From Candidatus Helarchaeota ASGARD archaeon Hel_GB_B (GTDB lineage: Archaea > Asgardarchaeota > Lokiarchaeia > Helarchaeales > HEL-GB-B), in assembly GCA_005191425.1 (NCBI GenBank), contig SUPR01000033.1, positions 1-32,000 on the forward strand: DNA of 32,000 bases. Direction: 5' to 3'. Shown in pieces: positions 10,618 to 22,763 of this stretch. The notes beneath the pieces were generated by a model. That model was given only the letters and a program-made list of their open reading frames with translations. It did no database searches and was not told the origin of the DNA. Numbering within the stretch: the stretch's first letter is position 1; each line of letters begins with the position of its first letter. The position numbers and the translations under genes are program-made.

Positions 10618-13600
10618 TTATTCATTTTTAGCTGGGGGTTTAGGGGGCATTACTAATAAATCAATATTACCAGTCCCTAGTGGTATAATCTGGCCAATAA
10701 TTACATTTTCTGTGATACCATTTAATGGGTCAATATCGCCTCTTAAACTTGCGTCTAATAAATGTTTAATAGTAATTTCAAATGAAGCTCTAGCAAGTGC
10801 TGATGCTTTTTTACCACTTATCCCATGACGCCCAATTTGTCTTAGATTTCCAGTGTTTGTCATTATATCAGCAACGAGCATTATATGTCGTATATCAACA
10901 TCGAGTCCTTGTTCATCTAATACACCTAAAGCCTCGTTAATAATAGCATTTCTACATGCTTCTATACCGAGGACTTCATATATTTCTCGTAAATGGTTTG
11001 TAGTAGTCCTAGTATGGTCAACTCCCTTTACTAATAAGACTTCTTTGAGATTAGTACCTTCAGAATGAATAACATATTCATCAATATCTTTTTCTTTACG
11101 AATTATTACTCTTTTTATGCCTTCAATACCTTTTATTGGGAAATCTTGGATATTTTCTTTTTCTTTTTGAAGTTTGTCTAAATCGCCAGCTTTAGGTTTA
11201 TAAATAATTTGATTTCTTGTCTTAAGAATTTTAACCTCGCCTTTTTTCTTCCAGTCCTTGGTTTTAGCCTCGATTATATCATATGTAATTCCTTTGTCCT
11301 CCATCAATGCGGGGTCGAGCTCGATAATAATTTCCATATTTGCGATATCAATGGCGATATGATCAGCAATATTTTCAATCCTTGTCAATTCAATTTTTTG
11401 TGATATTTCTTTTGCTATATCTTTATTTTTTGCAATATTTTTCTCGAGAAATATTTTCATCATTGGAGTGCTGGGTATTCGTCTTGCATCAACAATTTCT
11501 ATTAACCTGGGTAGACCTAAAGTAACATTAAACTCTGCTGCTCCTGCATAATGGAATGTTTTAAGAGTATTATGGGTAATTAATCCTTCAGATATCGTGA
11601 AAGTTTCAAGTCCACCTACTGTAAAATCGTAGACATATTCGGTTGGTGAATCTATTAATTCAATATTTGTAATTTCGTCCCAAATAATGTCACTTTTAAT
11701 AGACTTCTGTAAAACAGAAAGTTCTTCATTTATATCAATGTTTTTCTCCCTTGAAAATACCAAAAGTTTTTCAACTAAATCATTTAATATGGATCTTTTA
11801 ATTATTTGCTTCTCTATAATTCTATTGATATTTTTTCCTAATTCTGAATCATTTGAAATTAGGAGTTTTTCCTTAATAGTTTGAAATATTGGTCCAAACC
11901 CTGTTATAACGTCAAAATCACCATAATTGGACTCAAATTTTTTAATTTTATTGATCAATTTTGAAAATTTCTTTAATTCTTTAGGATTAGATATTTTGGT
12001 ACCAATTTCATTAAGAAAAGATATTATATGCTCTTGGTGAATTAATAGGGTATATTGACCTTTTCTATTCATTTTAAATGAGGGAATACCGATTCTTGAT
12101 AATAATAAACAAAGTTTATCCCTTAATTCTTTAGAGTTAGAACTCAACTCTATTTGACATTTCTTAATATTTATTTTACCTTTAAAATCAAAATAGCTCT
12201 TCAACAAACCCTTGATAAATGTATCGTCAGAATTAATGACCCAATCGGGGATTATTTTATTATTATTCAATTCCCAGTTAATCTCGAAGATTTCAGCCAA
12301 TTTACTTGAAGTAATTATGATTTTCTTTTCTTTTTTATAATAATCTTCTAATTTATAGTTAAGTCCATGTTCTGATATAAACTTAGTAATCATATCGGAA
12401 TTGATTTTATTGTTAATTACAATAGAAATTTTATCGCCAGAATTTTTCCCGTTAGCAAGATAAGCTCCAGTAAAATAGCCAGTCATAAAGTCTAATTCCC
12501 ATTTATTTACATAGGAATTATAGCTATTGGAATCGGAAGTATTATTTAATTGAATATTATTTTTAGTAAATACTTGAGAGCTCCCAAAGTTTGTTGATAC
12601 CGATAGTAATTCTACTTGAAAATTATCTTCATTTATTATCGTTTGATTATTATCCATTATTTTTTCTGAGTTATCAATTCCTATTGATATTTGATTTGAT
12701 ACATTTTTGTTAAAATCAATTACTTTTAGAGGGTTTTGCGCGGGTAATTTTTTGACTAAAGGAATTCTATCACCAATTTTCAAATCTTTACCCTTAATAG
12801 GGATGATATTATTATTTTCTCTAATGACAAATGAATGAGATAAAGTAGAAGAAATAGTCCTACCGCTTTTTGTAGATATTTTGACAAGTTTTCCATTAGG
12901 TAGGTGTCGGCTTACTTGTAACAATAGTTGCCAATGAACATGTTCATCTTTTCCTAATGAAGGTACAAAGATTGTCATATTTTTTGGGATATCACAAATA
13001 GTTGACCCGAAGCTTGTAAAAACATTATCAGAATTGGATAGTCTTGTTATTAATTTATCGACAAATTCTCCAATAGGAGTTATAAGTGCCCTATTTTCTT
13101 GAAGAATAATTACTTTTTCATTTCCAGGAATACTCATTTGAGTGCCGGGTTCACCAATTGATTGTGCTGCCACAGTACCGACTGCTTCTCCCGGGTCTAC
13201 CAATGCTTGTTTATAATAGTTTATGGAAATATCAATTATGTTGTTAAGTATTTTTTCAGTAACTTGAATTTTTTCTAATGCACTAATTAATTTATTTATT
13301 ATAGAGTAAGGAAGCTTATTGGAATCATATTGAAATTTTAACCTAGATGCAATTTCTTCATTTGATAAGACAGGAGTTTCGTCATCTTCAATCTCACTTA
13401 ATACTTTTTCAATGACAATACCAATATTAAAAGCGATGCCATGGTCGCTTTTTGCGGGATCAATTCCATCTTCGCCATATTGAAATTGGATTATGTCTCC
13501 GGCAGCATTTCTTACGGTTCCATCGTATTCTACTTTAATATCTTGAAGCGCATTAATCAATCTTCGTTGCATATAACCGCTTGTACTTGTTCTGACTGCA

Positions 13601-16600
13601 GTATCCACAAGTCCTTCACGACCGCCCATTGCATGGAAGAAAAATTCGATTGGTGTTAAACCGCTATAATAACAATTAACGACAAAACCATGAGCTTTTG
13701 CGCTTAAATCCTCTTTTCTAAAATGAGGTAATGTCCGTTTCTTATAACCCCTCATAATTCTAGCTCCTCTAACAGATTGTTGCCCGACACAAGCAGTCAT
13801 TTGTGCTAAATTTAAAGTATTACCTCTTGCACCAGTTTTTGTCATAATCACAGCATGTTTATCAATTCCCAAATATCGGCCAGCAATATCGCCTGCTTCG
13901 TCTCTTGCTTTTGATAATGTTTCCATTATACGCATTTCAAGAGTGTCCTCTAATGTCCTACCGGGCGCACGTTGTAATTCGCCTTGTCTATATGTTTCAA
14001 TAAAATTGTTTACTTTTTTATCTGCTTCATTTAAATTGTATCTAATTCTATTTTTCGCTTCTTCTTGTATTTCAACATCATCGATCCCCATAGTGAACCC
14101 AATATTTGTGATTATTTCTATAATCATCCTAGCACATGAATCTAAAAATTGTCTGGCCCTTGTATTTCCATAATCTTTGACTATTCTATGTAATAAACTA
14201 TTTGGCTGCCCAGCTCCAAATGCTTTATTATCAATTACACCTGTAAGGAGTCTACCACGTCTAATTAATACATACGCATCATATGGGCACTCAAATTCTT
14301 GGCATACTTTACAATTTTGACATATCTTGGCCCTTAAAGATAAATTAAGATATTTTGGTAGAAGGATTGAGATTATTTGTTTTCCAGTCCAATATTGAGT
14401 TGGATATTTTATTACAGGTTCAGGAATTTCATAATGTTTTTTCTTTTTATCAGTTTGATATCCTGCAGCCATTAATAATTGACAAACAGTTTCTCTATCT
14501 AAAAGGTTGCTTTTTCTTGTTAACAAAAATGCTCCAGAGATATAATCTTGGATACCACCAATAATTGGGCCACCATATCTGGGAGATTCAATCTGTTCTT
14601 GAACTTTCATTAAAACTAAAGCTTCTGACCTTGCTTCTTCACTTTGCGGGACATGTAAGTTCATTTCATCTCCATCAAAATCTGCATTATAAGGTGGACA
14701 ATTTTTAGTTAAAAATTCTGCTGCAATGAAATTGTGATTTTCATCTGTTGTTGTAATATCATAAGCATAAGGAAGTTCAATTTCCTCGATTTTAACTATT
14801 TCGTCCCAAACAAAGCCATTATTCAGACCTTCGGTAGCCTTAATTTTCCAAGTAAAAAAATCAGGGAAATTTTTAAGTATATCAATATTTTTTGATTTAT
14901 CTTCGAATAAATAAGAAACTATACTCCACGAATCTTGACCTATCATTTCAGCAATTTCGTTATAATTAAATCCTTTATTTACTAATTCAACTACTTTTAA
15001 TGCTATCTCGTTAATTTCATTCTTTGTTCTGATTTTTGTTGTTAAATATTCAGTGATATGTCTGGCTAAAATTTCTTTTTCATTTGCGAATTCATATCCA
15101 ATATTATTGAAAAAAGCTAAAAAGTTTTCATCATCTGGTGTCAAATAGCATGAATATATAATTTTTTTAGGGTCATCTTTTTTTGAATTGATAATGACAT
15201 TTGAAATTTTTATATTAAAGATGTTAAGTAATTCTCTTATTCCATCTATGAATGGTTCAGGTGATATACCATCTATTTTTGTTATTTCAAAATATAATCG
15301 ATCGAATTCTTTGTTAGAATCAGAATTTAATTCTGGTAAAGACATTTTAGACCCGAAATATGCCCTTAAAAATGCTCTTTTTGCCATTTTTGGAGCTTGC
15401 ATAATCCATTTAGGTGTTGAATATTCTTGAACTGTTTTATCACCAACAGGCACACCTAAGATATTAAATGCTAATGCTAAAGATTTGTTTCTAATTTCAA
15501 AATAATATGTCTCATTATCTGGATTAACTGTTTTATCGTTAGTAATAAAATCAGATTTAAAGTTAAGTTTATTTATTTGAATAGGAATATCCGTTAAGTT
15601 CAAAGATTTAATAAGATCATGCATTGATTTTATATCATTTTTATTATTAGCCCTAAAAATGATTCTGGCATCATTTTCTGATATGTCTAAAGAGCCATTA
15701 CCAAATAAATGACCGACTAAGCTAGCTAATTTAATTTGCTTATCAGAACCTGCTTTAATATCAATTAAACCGAGTTGTTTTAATTCATTAAATATATAAT
15801 CGAAGTCAAAATTATCAGATAAAGCATTAGATATTTGTTGTTTTGTTAGGATATCTGGACATCCACCAATTTCTGGATATTCAATTGGATAAATAGCTAA
15901 ATAATCGCCTATTTTCAAATCACCACAATTTACTATCCCATTTTTTGAATAAAATGGATGTTCTTGTGTTGCCTCAATAATTCTATTATTTTTAGTAATG
16001 ATTCTAAAAGATTTAAGTCCGAGTTCTTTTGGTTTAATAATGTGAGATTTAGAGATTCCTGAATAGTAAGTTTTTTTATTAGTAGTCCAATTACAAGATA
16101 AGGGACTAAAATTGTTATGATTCTTAACAATTTCTGAGATTTTTACTTTACCAAGATTAGTAAAAAGATAAGTATCACCAGATAGACAGACGCAGAGAGA
16201 TAGTCTAAATGTTTTAAAAGGCATTACGACTACTTCATGTGCCATAATAGATAAACGATGTAAAGAAGGTTGCCTATTAAAAAGTACAATATCTTTATCT
16301 TTAAGATGCCGTTCTACAATGAAACCAGGTTCTAATATATCTGCAACTGCTTCTCTATTTTTTACAAATCTTAGATCAATACGATTACCGTCAGATCTTA
16401 TTACATAATTTGCGCCAGGATGTTTTTCGGGGCCTCTTATAACTATTTCTTTCATTTCTTCAATATTCCACTCAGTAACCCTCTCAGGAATAGTCAAGAC
16501 TTTAGCAATTTCCTCAGGAACTCCGACCTCATTAATACTAAGGTTAGGGTCGGGTGAAATTACAGTCCTTGCTGAGAAATCAACTCGTTTTCCTGATAGA

Positions 16601-17553
16601 TTACTCCTAAACCTTCCTTCTTTACCTTTTAATCTTTGGGATAATGTCCTCAAGGCGCGACCAGAACGGTGGCGAGCTGGAGGAATCCCAGAAACTTCAT
16701 TATCAAAATAAGTGGTAACATGGTATTGAAGTAATTCCCATAAATCTTCTACGATTAATTGAGGAGCTCCAGCATCGATATTTTCTCTTAATCTTTGGTT
16801 TATCCTAATAATATCGACTAATTTATGTGTCATATCATCTTCTGATCGAACTCCAGAGTCAAGAGTTATAGAAGGTCTAACGCAGACTGGAGGTACTGCA
16901 AGTACTGATAAAATCATCCATTCTGGACGAGCAAATTTTGGATTAATCCCGAGTAGTTTACAATCTTCATCTGGAATTCGTTCAAATCGGTCTCGAATAT
17001 CGCTGGGATTTAACCTAATAGTCCCGCTCTCGGTTTTTTCGTAATATGTTGTTGGTTTTTCAATCTTGATCTTAAGTTGTTGTTCATTACAATATGGACA
17101 TTTTTGGGTCTTAATTGCTTCTTTTAAAGCAATTTTAACAATATTTTTGTCCAATTCGCCATATTTACTTTCATAATCATTCATTTTTTGTAAAAGTTCT
17201 TCATAGAGGTCATTATTAAGCATGATTCTGCTACATTGACGACATATTGCTCGTAAAATTTTCTGAATTTTACTGGCGAACCCCACATGGATAACGGGTC
17301 GAGCTAATTCAATATGGCCAAAATGGCCCGTACATTCAGTTGTTCTATTACCACAAGTCCTGCACCTATGGCCAGGTTCAACAGTACCAAGACGTCCGTC
17401 CATTAGACCAGAGTCAATAGGAAGACCATCTTCGTCATAAGTATCGGGTGTAATTATACGGATATGACTAATTTTTCGGATATCTTCGGGCGAAAATAAT
17501 CCGAATTGGATTGATTTGATTTTTTTTAATGAATGGATAGGCATAACATTCAA
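10618..17553 (-). CDS. rpoA: DNA-directed RNA polymerase subunit A, unsplit A'/A'' fusion interrupted by two inteins
   Basis: Zn motifs (RCRTCG, CPYC), FNRQPSLHRLS, CPPYNADFDGDEMN, bridge-helix region (GREGLVDTAVRTSTSGYMQRR) and A''-type GEPGTQM..TLKTFHYAG all lie in one frame. The likely start is ATG 17544, preceded by AGGTTGA. The extein sums to about 1290 aa. Confidence 0.95.
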   Translation of the reverse strand: MNVMPIHSLKKIKSIQFGLFSPEDIRKISHIRIITPDTYDEDGLPIDSGLMDGRLGTVEPGHRCRTCGNRTTECTGHFGHIELARPVIHVGFASKIQKILRAICRQCSRIMLNNDLYEELLQKMNDYESKYGELDKNIVKIALKEAIKTQKCPYCNEQQLKIKIEKPTTYYEKTESGTIRLNPSDIRDRFERIPDEDCKLLGINPKFARPEWMILSVLAVPPVCVRPSITLDSGVRSEDDMTHKLVDIIRINQRLRENIDAGAPQLIVEDLWELLQYHVTTYFDNEVSGIPPARHRSGRALRTLSQRLKGKEGRFRSNLSGKRVDFSARTVISPDPNLSINEVGVPEEIAKVLTIPERVTEWNIEEMKEIVIRGPEKHPGANYVIRSDGNRIDLRFVKNREAVADILEPGFIVERHLKDKDIVLFNRQPSLHRLSIMAHEVVVMPFKTFRLSLCVCLSGDTYLFTNLGKVKISEIVKNHNNFSPLSCNWTTNKKTYYSGISKSHIIKPKELGLKSFRIITKNNRIIEATQEHPFYSKNGIVNCGDLKIGDYLAIYPIEYPEIGGCPDILTKQQISNALSDNFDFDYIFNELKQLGLIDIKAGSDKQIKLASLVGHLFGNGSLDISENDARIIFRANNKNDIKSMHDLIKSLNLTDIPIQINKLNFKSDFITNDKTVNPDNETYYFEIRNKSLALAFNILGVPVGDKTVQEYSTPKWIMQAPKMAKRAFLRAYFGSKMSLPELNSDSNKEFDRLYFEITKIDGISPEPFIDGIRELLNIFNIKISNVIINSKKDDPKKIIYSCYLTPDDENFLAFFNNIGYEFANEKEILARHITEYLTTKIRTKNEINEIALKVVELVNKGFNYNEIAEMIGQDSWSIVSYLFEDKSKNIDILKNFPDFFTWKIKATEGLNNGFVWDEIVKIEEIELPYAYDITTTDENHNFIAAEFLTKNCPPYNADFDGDEMNLHVPQSEEARSEALVLMKVQEQIESPRYGGPIIGGIQDYISGAFLLTRKSNLLDRETVCQLLMAAGYQTDKKKKHYEIPEPVIKYPTQYWTGKQIISILLPKYLNLSLRAKICQNCKVCQEFECPYDAYVLIRRGRLLTGVIDNKAFGAGQPNSLLHRIVKDYGNTRARQFLDSCARMIIEIITNIGFTMGIDDVEIQEEAKNRIRYNLNEADKKVNNFIETYRQGELQRAPGRTLEDTLEMRIMETLSKARDEAGDIAGRYLGIDKHAVIMTKTGARGNTLNLAQMTACVGQQSVRGARIMRGYKKRTLPHFRKEDLSAKAHGFVVNCYYSGLTPIEFFFHAMGGREGLVDTAVRTSTSGYMQRRLINALQDIKVEYDGTVRNAAGDIIQFQYGEDGIDPAKSDHGIAFNIGIVIEKVLSEIEDDETPVLSNEEIASRLKFQYDSNKLPYSIINKLISALEKIQVTEKILNNIIDISINYYKQALVDPGEAVGTVAAQSIGEPGTQMSIPGNEKVIILQENRALITPIGEFVDKLITRLSNSDNVFTSFGSTICDIPKNMTIFVPSLGKDEHVHWQLLLQVSRHLPNGKLVKISTKSGRTISSTLSHSFVIRENNNIIPIKGKDLKIGDRIPLVKKLPAQNPLKVIDFNKNVSNQISIGIDNSEKIMDNNQTIINEDNFQVELLSVSTNFGSSQVFTKNNIQLNNTSDSNSYNSYVNKWELDFMTGYFTGAYLANGKNSGDKISIVINNKINSDMITKFISEHGLNYKLEDYYKKEKKIIITSSKLAEIFEINWELNNNKIIPDWVINSDDTFIKGLLKSYFDFKGKINIKKCQIELSSNSKELRDKLCLLLSRIGIPSFKMNRKGQYTLLIHQEHIISFLNEIGTKISNPKELKKFSKLINKIKKFESNYGDFDVITGFGPIFQTIKEKLLISNDSELGKNINRIIEKQIIKRSILNDLVEKLLVFSREKNIDINEELSVLQKSIKSDIIWDEITNIELIDSPTEYVYDFTVGGLETFTISEGLITHNTLKTFHYAGAAEFNVTLGLPRLIEIVDARRIPSTPMMKIFLEKNIAKNKDIAKEISQKIELTRIENIADHIAIDIANMEIIIELDPALMEDKGITYDIIEAKTKDWKKKGEVKILKTRNQIIYKPKAGDLDKLQKEKENIQDFPIKGIEGIKRVIIRKEKDIDEYVIHSEGTNLKEVLLVKGVDHTRTTTNHLREIYEVLGIEACRNAIINEALGVLDEQGLDVDIRHIMLVADIMTNTGNLRQIGRHGISGKKASALARASFEITIKHLLDASLRGDIDPLNGITENVIIGQIIPLGTGNIDLLVMPPKPPAKNE
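11569..13134 (-). mobile_element. Intein 2 (522 aa) with a LAGLIDADG-type endonuclease domain, in the A'' part of rpoA
   Basis: Junctions are ...SIGEPGTQM|SIPGNEKVII...TISEGLITHN|TLKTFHYAG. Removing it restores GEPGTQMTLKTFHYAG. Block B is STLSHSF and block F/G is YVYDFTVGGLETFTISEGLITHN. DOD-like motifs are YFTGAYLANGKN and FIKGLLKSYFDFKGKI. Confidence 0.9.
14701..16188 (-). mobile_element. Intein 1 (496 aa) with a LAGLIDADG-type endonuclease domain, in the A' part of rpoA
   Basis: Junctions are ...FRLSLCV|CLSGDTYLF...NHNFIAAEFLTKN|CPPYNADFDGD. Removing it restores the conserved RLxLxVCPPYNADFDGD. Block B is ATQEHPF and block F is YDITTTDENHNF. DOD-like motifs are LVGHLFGNGSL and FLRAYFGSKMS. 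Confidence 0.9.
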
Positions 17554-17971: not shown

Positions 17972-18496
17972 TTATTTTTTACTTTTTGTTGATAACCGTT
18001 TTCCACAACTTGGGCAAGTGCCGTGAATCTTAAGATATTCAAGGAAGTGGTCTTTATGGGCAACTACACCACAAGCAGGACATTTTATCTTGACATCACC
18101 TGGTTTTATTATTCCTTTACAGACTGGACAAACTAATGGAACTTGTGATATTAAAAGTAATCTTTTTTCTGAATTAAACTTGGCACTTTCTAAATTATCT
18201 ATCCCGATGATAAATGGCTTTTGATTTTCTCTAGAATCCAAAAAAATTTCGATCCCCTTTTTTCCATCTCTACGGTCGCCTATCCATTTTACTGTACCTG
18301 AAATTTTTGAAACAGGAGAACCACTTTTAGAGATAGAGATTTCTGCTTTTAAAGGAGAATCAAAAATAAATGTCCTAAGTACTTTTGTTATTTCAAACGC
18401 TTCTTTAGTTCGTTCTGAATTTATAGCATTATTAATAGCCATTACTAATTTTTCTGGACCATTATCAATTAAGTTCTTAACATCAATTTCTACCAA
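17972..18496 (-). CDS. Hypothetical protein with a C-terminal RING-like cross-brace zinc module
   Basis: The C-terminus reads CPVC-x12-CPAC-x4-H-x2-H-x10-CPSC (residues 123-164). No motif recognised in the N-terminal 120 aa. Confidence 0.6.
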   Translation of the reverse strand: MVEIDVKNLIDNGPEKLVMAINNAINSERTKEAFEITKVLRTFIFDSPLKAEISISKSGSPVSKISGTVKWIGDRRDGKKGIEIFLDSRENQKPFIIGIDNLESAKFNSEKRLLLISQVPLVCPVCKGIIKPGDVKIKCPACGVVAHKDHFLEYLKIHGTCPSCGKRLSTKSKK

Positions 18497-21947: not shown

Positions 21948-22397
21948 ATGAGCGCAGAAAACAAATTTTATAGAGAGCTAGCTAATTTAATTGGTTCAAG
22001 AATTAAAGTCCAGACTAATTTAATTAATAATCAAGTTTATACGGGTACACTTGCTGCTTATGACCGTAATACAATGTCGCTGGTAATCCATAAAGCAGAA
22101 GACCAAGATGGGAATAAATACGAAAAAATTGTAATTTATGGACAATGGGTTCAATATATTATAGAAACAGAGAAACCATTCGATTTAAAAGGTTTGGCTG
22201 ATTCCCTTTCTAAATTATTTCCCCCTGGAGAGGTTGAATATATTGAATCTGCAGGGTCAATTATGATACTTAATAAAATTAAAGTAACTGAGGACGGAGT
22301 CCAAGGGGTTGGCCCACTGGCTGAAAGAGTACAAAGAGCTTTTGATGAATTTGTTGCTGAAAAGAAAGCAGAAAAAAAAACCAATAAAATAACTTAA
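21948..22397 (+). CDS. Sm-like (LSm) protein with a C-terminal extension
   Basis: Sm1-like segment IGSRIKVQTNLINNQVYTGTLAAYDRNTMSLVI and Sm2-like segment IVIYGQWVQYI, followed by about 75 extra residues. GAGGT lies 6 nt upstream of the ATG. Confidence 0.55.
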   Translation: MSAENKFYRELANLIGSRIKVQTNLINNQVYTGTLAAYDRNTMSLVIHKAEDQDGNKYEKIVIYGQWVQYIIETEKPFDLKGLADSLSKLFPPGEVEYIESAGSIMILNKIKVTEDGVQGVGPLAERVQRAFDEFVAEKKAEKKTNKIT

Positions 22398-22412: not shown

Positions 22413-22763
22413 ATGTTGCAATTTGAAACAAAAGTAATTAAAATTGAACCTACAGAAACTAGCGGAGTATCATTTATTTATTTCTCAAGCAATAAAGGCG
22501 AGTTAAAACTTGAATTGCCAGATAAAATAAATTATTTTACTAAAGAAGACGAAATAAAAATACGACTTGTAGATGAGGATAAACCAGAAGATGATGACAA
22601 ACTTTTTGTCAAGGGATTTATATATTCAAACACAAAAACAGAGAATGATAAAAGAATTATATTAATAAGTATTGGAGGTCTTATTTTTAAATTAGTCATG
22701 GAAGATAATTCAGAATTAACTAATCTTAAGCCAAAACGCGATATTTATATCGGCTTCAAATAA
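22413..22763 (+). CDS. rpoG: Candidate RNA polymerase subunit Rpo8 (RpoG/Rpb8-like)
   Basis: The C-terminal pattern KGFIYS...RIILISIGGLIFKLVMEDN...RDIYIGFK parallels the Rpb8/Rpo8 signature (YVMxGxxY ... SFGGLLMxL ... VYLLxKK). It is 116 aa, and AGGTG (22402-22406) lies 6 nt upstream of the ATG. Confidence 0.5.
   Translation: MLQFETKVIKIEPTETSGVSFIYFSSNKGELKLELPDKINYFTKEDEIKIRLVDEDKPEDDDKLFVKGFIYSNTKTENDKRIILISIGGLIFKLVMEDNSELTNLKPKRDIYIGFK

Follow-up and report, generated by a model that had tools for sequence, protein, structure and literature searches.

Inteins in archaeal RNA polymerase have been listed since the 1990s-2000s, among them Mja rPol A', Mja rPol A'' and Nph rPol A'' (PMC1635734). 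An rpolA intein allele has also been catalogued in Halobacteria (PMC4071816), and the M. jannaschii polymerase sequence is numbered by its intein-free product (PMC2776397). Here, we describe an intein of this kind in a stretch of 32,000 nucleotides (positions 1 to 32,000 of contig SUPR01000033.1, assembly GCA_005191425.1), which we will term the window. The window is DNA from a metagenome-assembled genome (MAG) of Candidatus Helarchaeota, a group of Asgard archaea. Its rpoA gene, for RNA polymerase subunit A, encodes two inteins, which we will term intein 1 and intein 2. Our subject is intein 2, which is 522 residues long and interrupts the trigger loop. We propose, with considerable confidence, that it is a fixed, splicing-competent class-1 intein in the trigger loop of an unsplit Helarchaeota RpoA and that it is no longer able to home.

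Intein 2 shares with the Mja rPol A'' intein its site (GEPGTQM/S...HN/T), Ser1, the terminal His-Asn, Thr+1, and a HINT domain with a nested LAGLIDADG domain. The intein of Methanocaldococcus sp. 28A is 37-40% identical to intein 2. The differences are that the host of Mja rPol A'' is a separate A'' subunit, while the host of intein 2 is an unsplit Asgard RpoA; that intein 2 is about 55 residues longer than the Mja rPol A'' type, with a disordered Asn-rich linker; and that intein 2 has lost both of the endonuclease's acidic residues, whereas the Methanocaldococcus copies have lost one. The halobacterial rpolA (Nph rPol A'') intein also lies in subunit A of an archaeal RNA polymerase, and we liken it to intein 2 by host subunit (PMC1635734, PMC4071816).

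The Asgard trigger-loop inteins also share the site of intein 2. (We number protein relatives with P and genome loci with L; P0084 is encoded at L001 and P0083 at L002.) These inteins, from Hel_GB_A, P0083, P0088, P0092 and from Promethearchaeota, Hermod-, Heimdall- and Lokiarchaeota, have a long form of about 525-545 residues and form one clade with intein 2 in a neighbour-joining tree. Those of P0083, P0088, P0092 and P0144 are also in a fused RpoA. However, the Asgard trigger-loop inteins are only 41-45% identical to intein 2, and the intein of P0088 differs from it in having intact endonuclease motifs (GAYLAEG / YFDGDG) and a conserved linker. Judging by the searchable literature, the presence of the allele in an unsplit Helarchaeota RpoA, its combination with a second intein in the catalytic centre, and the decay of its endonuclease are new. 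We found no paper describing inteins in Asgard RpoA in the open-access literature, which is weak evidence of absence.

A trigger-loop intein of the rPol A'' allele

Within a single reading frame, the archaeal RpoA' equivalog models of NCBIfam score 1419 and 1393 bits and the RpoA'' models score 818 and 461 bits. As the A' and A'' regions are continuous in one open reading frame (ORF), the host gene is an unsplit RpoA. Intein 2 comprises residues 1474-1995 of this 2311-codon ORF, so that 1566 bp are inserted in frame, and its junctions are AAQSIGEPGTQM, then SIPGNE...GLITHN, then TLKTFHYAGAAE. A first-pass annotation of the window, made from the sequence, had proposed that an intein with these junctions splits the RNA polymerase trigger loop at 11569-13134. 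The residues map exactly to those nucleotides, and profiles, fold and the alignment to Rpb1 all agree with the proposal. Yeast Rpb1 (1i3q_A) and the spliced sequence can be aligned without gaps (query 2-50 to chain 1058-1106). The insertion point is M1079/T1080 of Rpb1, 5 residues ahead of His1085, and the histidine of TLKTFH aligns with H1085, the catalytic histidine of the trigger loop, as the annotation had stated. The equivalents in T. kodakarensis A'' (4qiw_C) are 79/80 for the insertion and His85.

The annotation had also suggested profile searches of residues 1474-1995, and these returned Intein_splicing (PF14890, E = 5e-19, over intein residues 11-522), LAGLIDADG_3 (PF14528, E = 7.6e-7, at intein residues 307-378) and NF011491 (discussed below). 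These Pfam and NCBIfam matches are far beyond chance. A sequence search of the PDB matched PI-PkoII, mini-inteins of TFIIB and the MJ0781 (KlbA) intein. An AlphaFold model built from a 58-sequence alignment (mean pLDDT 87.3, pTM 0.86) is confident outside residues 147-206, and pLDDT is above 90 in both halves of the HINT domain. The best matches to this model among PDB structures (Foldseek) were TliVMA (7QSS, 3e-25), PI-PkoII (2CW7), PI-PfuI (1DQ3) and PI-SceI (1VDE), within a range of 3e-25 to 6e-9. PI-PkoII aligns with intein 2 in sequence too, over the HINT and LAGLIDADG regions. These four are non-allelic inteins of other host proteins and share the fold at 8-18% identity. Further matches were mini-inteins (5o9i, 4e2t) and free-standing LAGLIDADG enzymes such as I-DmoI and I-Tsp061I.

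All of the residues for class-1 splicing are present: Ser1, T97-L-S-H100 in block B, D503 in block F, H521-N522, and Thr+1. (The annotation had noted Ser1, Thr+1 and the canonical His-Asn terminus, correctly.) Across 80 aligned allelic inteins, T97, H100, D503, H521, N522 and Thr+1 are invariant, and position 1 is Ser in 77 and Cys in 3; T97 and H100 are also invariant in the 58-sequence alignment. Thus, intein 2 has a nucleophile in block A, TxxH in block B, the Asp of block F, a terminal His-Asn, a +1 nucleophile and the HINT fold, and the insertion is absent from orthologues. It also has two LAGLIDADG helices in a pseudo-dimeric alpha-beta core (PF14528, with matches to I-DmoI, I-Tsp061I, PI-PfuI and PI-PkoII). 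Judged by its sequence and predicted structure, intein 2 belongs to the canonical class-1 inteins and has a LAGLIDADG homing-endonuclease domain nested within it.

To which allele does it belong? The insert by itself is matched at 7e-101 by NF011491 (PRK14898), a model of intein-containing RpoA'' with 860 positions, of which 76-543 are aligned. For the intein-containing models of other proteins (Tes, PolII, IF2, DnaB, RtcB, VMA), the match to intein 2 is 4e-14 or weaker. A search of 5.8 billion proteins gave 59 matches, all of them RpoA'' or RpoA, of about 800-900 residues and at most 41% identical; the named sources are Promethearchaeota, Lokiarchaeota, Ranarchaeia, Woese-, Pace- and Aenigmarchaeota, and Methanocaldococcus. 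The intein site, TQM/S(C)...HN/T, is identical in all of the matches that cover the junctions (59/59).

A scan with one genome per GTDB species found relatives of intein 2 encoded in 197 genomes, of which 80 are listed and provide the counts of loci. The insertion site is the same at 78 of these 80 loci (Ser1 in 75, Cys1 in 3, and His-Asn with Thr+1 in 78/78), which span Asgard, DPANN, Thermoplasmatota, Archaeoglobaceae, Methanosarcinales/ANME-2 and Methanocaldococcaceae. The annotation had called for a comparison with known RpoA'' inteins of Thermococcales and Methanocaldococcus. The site is identical to that of the Methanocaldococcus RpoA'' intein and of about 135 other archaeal RpoA''/RpoA inteins that we examined; there are no Thermococcales RpoA inteins among the matches listed. 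Nor are there any haloarchaeal sequences among them. Intein 2 occupies the homologous position in its host and is closer to allelic than to non-allelic inteins, and by these sequence relationships it is a member of the known, old and widespread rPol A'' allele. It is a diverged member, with at most 45% identity to anything found.

Two further proteins from outside the window, P0056 and P0057, have an allelic intein at the same site (TQM/S...HN/TLNTFH), within the unusual trigger-loop sequences TLNTFHSAGIGG and TLNTFHHCGISE. The extein of P0056 has Rpb1 domain 7 (PF04990), which suggests that it is an Rpb1 of the eukaryotic or giant-virus type; P0057 is a weaker candidate. The trigger-loop allele thus seems to exist outside of the Archaea. 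If P0056 is eukaryotic or giant-viral, then an Rpb1 with this allele would offer a starting point for tracing genes exchanged between archaea and large DNA viruses.

We also observed variation in the C-extein. In L038, L039, L052, L064, L079, P0015, P0023, P0052 and P0058, which are from Aenigmatarchaeota (DPANN), it is TMRSYTLA or TMRSYIMA rather than T(L/M)xTFH(F/Y)A, so the trigger-loop histidine of these polymerases is replaced by Thr or Ile. Several Woesearchaeota have TLNVKHFA.

Empty and occupied sites, and the state of the endonuclease

The closest extein relatives of the window's RpoA are from other Helarchaeota with fused RpoA. P0084 and P0085 (84% and 83% extein identity, about 1290 residues) have no inteins. 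P0083 (87%, 1822 residues) has the trigger-loop intein only. P0088 and P0092 (about 73%; 1842 and 1832 residues) and P0144 (59%, 1903 residues) have a trigger-loop intein as well. GEPGTQM/TLKTFHYAG is uninterrupted in P0084, P0085, P0087, P0089 and other Helarchaeota RpoA. A non-intein insertion in unsplit homologues would have spoken against the first-pass annotation, but Helarchaeota RpoA proteins have either nothing or an allelic intein at this position.

Both L001 and L002 show synteny with the window to the left and right of rpoA. In the DNA of L001, CAA ATG/ACC TTA AAA runs on without the 1566 bases that the window has at this point; of the 72 flanking bases, 66 are identical between the window and this empty site, as are all of the flanking amino acids. 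Intein 2 is therefore a clean 1566-bp presence/absence polymorphism among syntenic relatives. The GC content of intein 2 is 0.27, as compared to 0.33-0.365 for the extein, and the intein of L002 is likewise more AT-rich than its extein. As to where these populations were sampled, JGI sample 3300033149 contains both a two-intein strain (L083) and the related Helarchaeota species with only the trigger-loop intein (L002), and the intein-free L001 is from sample 3300033156.

In the neighbour-joining tree, intein 2 is sister to the intein of P0083, inside the Asgard clade. The two are 44% identical. At the nucleotide level, the inteins of the window and L002 are 59% identical, which is too saturated for an analysis of rates. 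Tentatively, the sister grouping agrees with vertical inheritance after inactivation.

LAGLIDADG enzymes need one acid per motif for catalytic metal binding. The consensus motifs of the allele are GAYLAEG and (G/A)YFDGDG, but intein 2 has GAYLANG and SYFDFKG. Thus, both acidic positions are substituted (Asn228, where the consensus is Glu, and Lys318, where the consensus is Asp), and the acidic residue that each motif of an active endonuclease should have is missing. Among the 80 relatives, Asp or Glu is found at the position of N228 in 75 and at that of K318 in 74. Both acids are kept in 72 of the 80 allelic inteins and both are lost in only 3: the window, L002/P0083, and L059. (The motifs of P0083 read GVYLARG and YFDTYR.) From the loss of both metal-binding acids, we predict that the endonuclease of intein 2 is inactive.

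Conservation is uneven along the insert. Linker residues 147-206 have 9-12% identity to relatives, and the Asgard relatives share a conserved sequence there. Helical region 381-480 has 30-37% identity. Between the window and P0083, identity is 64% in HINT-N, 79% in HINT-C, 40% in the LAGLIDADG domain, 30% in the helical region and 12% in the linker, as compared to 87% in the extein. This is the pattern expected if selection keeps splicing but no longer homing.

Splicing, persistence and alternative explanations

The steps that we propose follow established intein chemistry; our own evidence concerns the residues, their conservation, the fold, the allelic relations and the empty site. After translation, the HINT domain would fold from its two halves (residues 1-135 and 481-522). 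Ser1 would perform an N-O acyl shift at the Met/Ser bond, and the hydroxyl of Thr+1 would attack the resulting ester to form a branched intermediate (transesterification). Cyclisation of Asn522, assisted by His521, would then release the intein. Finally, an O-N shift would give a normal Met-Thr bond and restore GEPGTQM-TLKTFHYAG and the trigger loop. Because nucleotide addition depends on the trigger loop and only one rpoA is seen at the locus, we infer that splicing of both intein 1 and intein 2 is obligatory for an active polymerase.

The rPol A'' allele would normally spread because its own endonuclease cuts the empty GEPGTQM/TLKTFH site. In the lineage of the window, neither metal-binding acid is left and the adjacent linker has decayed to a disordered Asn-rich tract. 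Intein 2 has most likely lost its mobility. Vertical inheritance would maintain it, since a deletion that was not precise would be lethal in a catalytic loop that is essential.

Several points weigh against this account. Splicing competence is read from conserved residues, and the loss of two acids predicts, but does not prove, an inactive endonuclease. The inteins of the window and P0083 are both long branches and could group artefactually, and an intein identity of 44% beside an extein identity of 87% could equally mean separate acquisitions instead of vertical descent. Also, the population variants within intein 2 (window versus L083, L084 and L085; 1 synonymous and 1-2 nonsynonymous) are too few to gauge selection.

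Could intein 2 still be an active mobile element, whose LAGLIDADG domain cuts the intein-free rpoA of co-occurring Helarchaeota so that it spreads by homing? The LAGLIDADG fold is intact and confidently predicted, the related population L001 offers an empty site with the same flanking amino acids, and a related species with only the trigger-loop intein shares a sample with the two-intein strain. Also, the allele as a whole is mobile, as both catalytic acids are retained in most of its members (72 of 80). Nevertheless, we consider ongoing homing to be unlikely because Asn228 and Lys318 are non-acidic, because the linker that is conserved in Asgard relatives with intact motifs has been replaced by a disordered low-complexity tract, and because the sister intein in P0083 has decayed too. 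If homing has been lost, the retention of intein 2 might instead reflect regulation: splicing of one or both inteins could be a post-translational switch, responsive to temperature, redox or substrate, that gates the active RNA polymerase. Other inteins of archaea and bacteria are reported to splice conditionally, and with both inteins in the catalytic centre of an essential enzyme, the unspliced precursor is necessarily inactive. But the sequence does not indicate a sensor, the Ser1/Thr+1 pair lacks the cysteines of redox-controlled inteins, close relatives without the intein do not require such regulation, and the lethality of imprecise deletion fully explains why the intein persists. We view such a switch as unlikely. 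In a broader form of this idea, the intein with its dead endonuclease would be kept for an acquired host function, which could be a conditional gate on RNA polymerase or a role for the freed 60-kDa intein as a DNA-binding factor, as a weak WhiA-like similarity of the LAGLIDADG domain might hint; this is speculative and, in our judgement, no less improbable than the switch.

Alternatively, the insert might not splice at all. In bacteria, RNA polymerase can accommodate large insertions in its trigger loop: SI3 of E. coli beta' is, like intein 2, a large insertion in the trigger loop of the largest subunit, and it stays in the mature enzyme as a permanent structural domain. If intein 2 were similarly retained, as a lineage-specific trigger-loop domain, then the clear change in its endonuclease part could be read as co-option. 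However, SI3 lacks splicing motifs, whereas no splicing residue is missing from intein 2 and we predict its removal. The six splicing residues and Thr+1 are all in place, and no other part of the insert is as well conserved as the two HINT halves. Furthermore, the insertion is not in a variable stretch but within the conserved N-terminal segment of the trigger loop (QM/TLxTFH), beside the catalytic histidine, and close relatives work without any insert. We give retention in the mature polymerase very little credence. Even less credible is that the fused gene with two inteins is a mis-assembly or chimera. Its source is a MAG, and the NCBI pipeline annotated the gene in pieces (a 1330-residue "A''" and partial A' fragments), but the 2311 codons contain no stop, synteny with L001 and L002 extends on either side of the gene, and the two-intein gene was recovered on three further contigs of independent assemblies, with 19-20 nucleotide differences over the whole gene. 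A fixed intein that splices but no longer homes accounts best for these observations.

The host gene, its surroundings and implications

Table 1. Features of rpoA and its inteins in the window (nucleotide positions; residue numbers are those of intein 2).
Feature	Position	Strand	Remarks
rpoA, fused A' + A''	10618..17544 (ATG) or 10618..17553 (TTG)	minus	one stop-free ORF; A' and A'' models
Intein 1, 496 aa	14701..16188	minus	Cys1, terminal Lys-Asn, Cys+1; TIGR01445 and TIGR01443
N-extein end, IGEPGTQM	13135..13158	minus	Met corresponds to yeast Rpb1 M1079
Intein 2 (trigger-loop intein), 522 aa	11569..13134	minus	allelic to Mja rPol A''
HINT-N splicing module, residues 1-135	12730..13134	minus	TIGR01445 intein_Nterm; Ser1 at 13132-13134, TLSH at 12835-12846
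Asn/Ser-rich low-complexity linker, residues 147-206	12517..12696	minus	predicted disordered, pLDDT <50
LAGLIDADG domain, residues 211-380	11995..12504	minus	Pfam LAGLIDADG_3; predicted catalytically dead
LAGLIDADG motif 1, GAYLANG	12448-12468	minus	
LAGLIDADG motif 2, YFDFKG	12178-12195	minus	
Helical region between endonuclease and HINT-C, residues 381-480	11695..11994	minus	AlphaFold confident, helical
HINT-C splicing module, residues 481-522	11569..11694	minus	block F YVYDFTV (Asp503); block G His521-Asn522
C-extein start, TLKTFHYA	11545..11568	minus	Thr+1 (11566-11568), predicted splice nucleophile; His corresponds to Rpb1 H1085

The rpoA ORF has 2311 codons if it begins at the TTG at 17553 and 2308 if it begins at the ATG at 17544, and its stop codon is at 10618-10620. 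In public databases, the identical protein is called from the ATG, 3 codons past the TTG, with 2308 residues, and the ATG is probably the true start. (Residue numbers in the first-pass annotation, which we follow, are those of the database protein plus 3.) With both inteins removed, the spliced product has 1290 residues. A fused RpoA of about this size is shared by our matches from Helarchaeota, Baldrarchaeia, Bathyarchaeia and Nitrososphaerota. Fused forms of subunit A are on record for some Asgard archaea, Thaumarchaea and Bathyarchaea (PMC5484517), and the legend of Figure 2 in the paper on Helarchaeota indicates that fused versus split subunit A was scored over Asgard genomes (PMC6478937). 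The identical 2308-residue protein is present in several public assemblies (independent ones from JGI, ENA and NCBI). JGI and ENA gene calls give the full length. In several MAGs, the NCBI pipeline split the gene into a 1330-residue "subunit A''" that starts after intein 1 and partial A' pieces.

Intein 1 has the junctions ...SLCV, then CLSGDT...FLTKN, then the C-extein, and is inserted 5 residues ahead of NADFDGD. Both inteins lie in the catalytic centre, and together they make up 1018 (496 + 522) of the 2311 codons, or 44% of rpoA, just as the annotation had reported. The best NCBIfam match of intein 1 is the RtcB intein model NF038162 (9.5e-71) and not an RpoA' model, and intein 1 is absent from every Helarchaeota relative that we examined, including the 87%-identical P0083. 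Its absence from relatives and its RtcB-type match point to a recent acquisition, possibly from a non-allelic source. Beyond what the annotation had described, our analysis adds that intein 2 belongs to a long-known allele, that it has lost both endonuclease acids, and that the gene probably starts at the ATG.

Downstream of rpoA are genes for L30e, NusA, a PfkB kinase and an ATP-dependent DNA ligase; elsewhere, the window encodes the archaeosine tRNA-guanine transglycosylase (TGT), a thermosome and both PheRS subunits. The window departs from the classical archaeal operon in that rpoA is not preceded by rpoB and rpoH. Upstream of it there is instead a zinc-ribbon/RING-like ORF of 174 residues (17972-18496, minus strand) and then divergently transcribed genes. 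The same upstream arrangement is found in L001 and L002, except that these have an asparagine synthase gene, which is missing from the window, between a QRPTase-like gene and the 174-residue ORF. Two ORFs adjoin the TGT gene (22413-22763, plus strand, 116 residues; and 21948-22397, plus strand, 149 residues), and in size and in their position next to the TGT gene they match the RpbG/Rpo8 (PF16992) and Lsm_C genes of L001. Rfam and tRNA scans of the window returned no matches, and the plus strand across intein 2 has no ORF of at least 100 residues.

Given the GC content of 27-30% and the unsplit, Rpb1-like gene, we also considered whether the window might be from a giant virus or a eukaryote. 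This can be rejected: scores for the archaeal A' and A'' equivalog models exceed the cut-offs by far, the neighbouring genes include L30e, NusA, thermosome, archaeosine TGT and PheRS, and the neighbouring proteins have exact matches among the entries for Candidatus Helarchaeota MAGs. In all, exact matches in public collections exist for six proteins of the window. Four of them, the thermosome, PheRS alpha, a TPD-domain protein and an Fe-S protein, are labelled Candidatus Helarchaeota archaeon; the other two are PheRS beta and the 2308-residue RpoA, and for RpoA a source name is attached to further members of its cluster.

The practical consequence is for phylogeny. RpoA is a standard marker for relating Asgard archaea and eukaryotes, and as 44% of this rpoA is intein, alignments should be made only after the inteins have been identified and cut out. 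The fragmented annotation could also mislead pipelines in which RpoA is a marker gene. Our understanding of inteins or of RNA polymerase is not changed by this finding. What it does show is stages of the intein homing cycle side by side within one Asgard order: an empty site, an intein with an intact endonuclease, an intein whose endonuclease has decayed, and a gene that has acquired a second intein.

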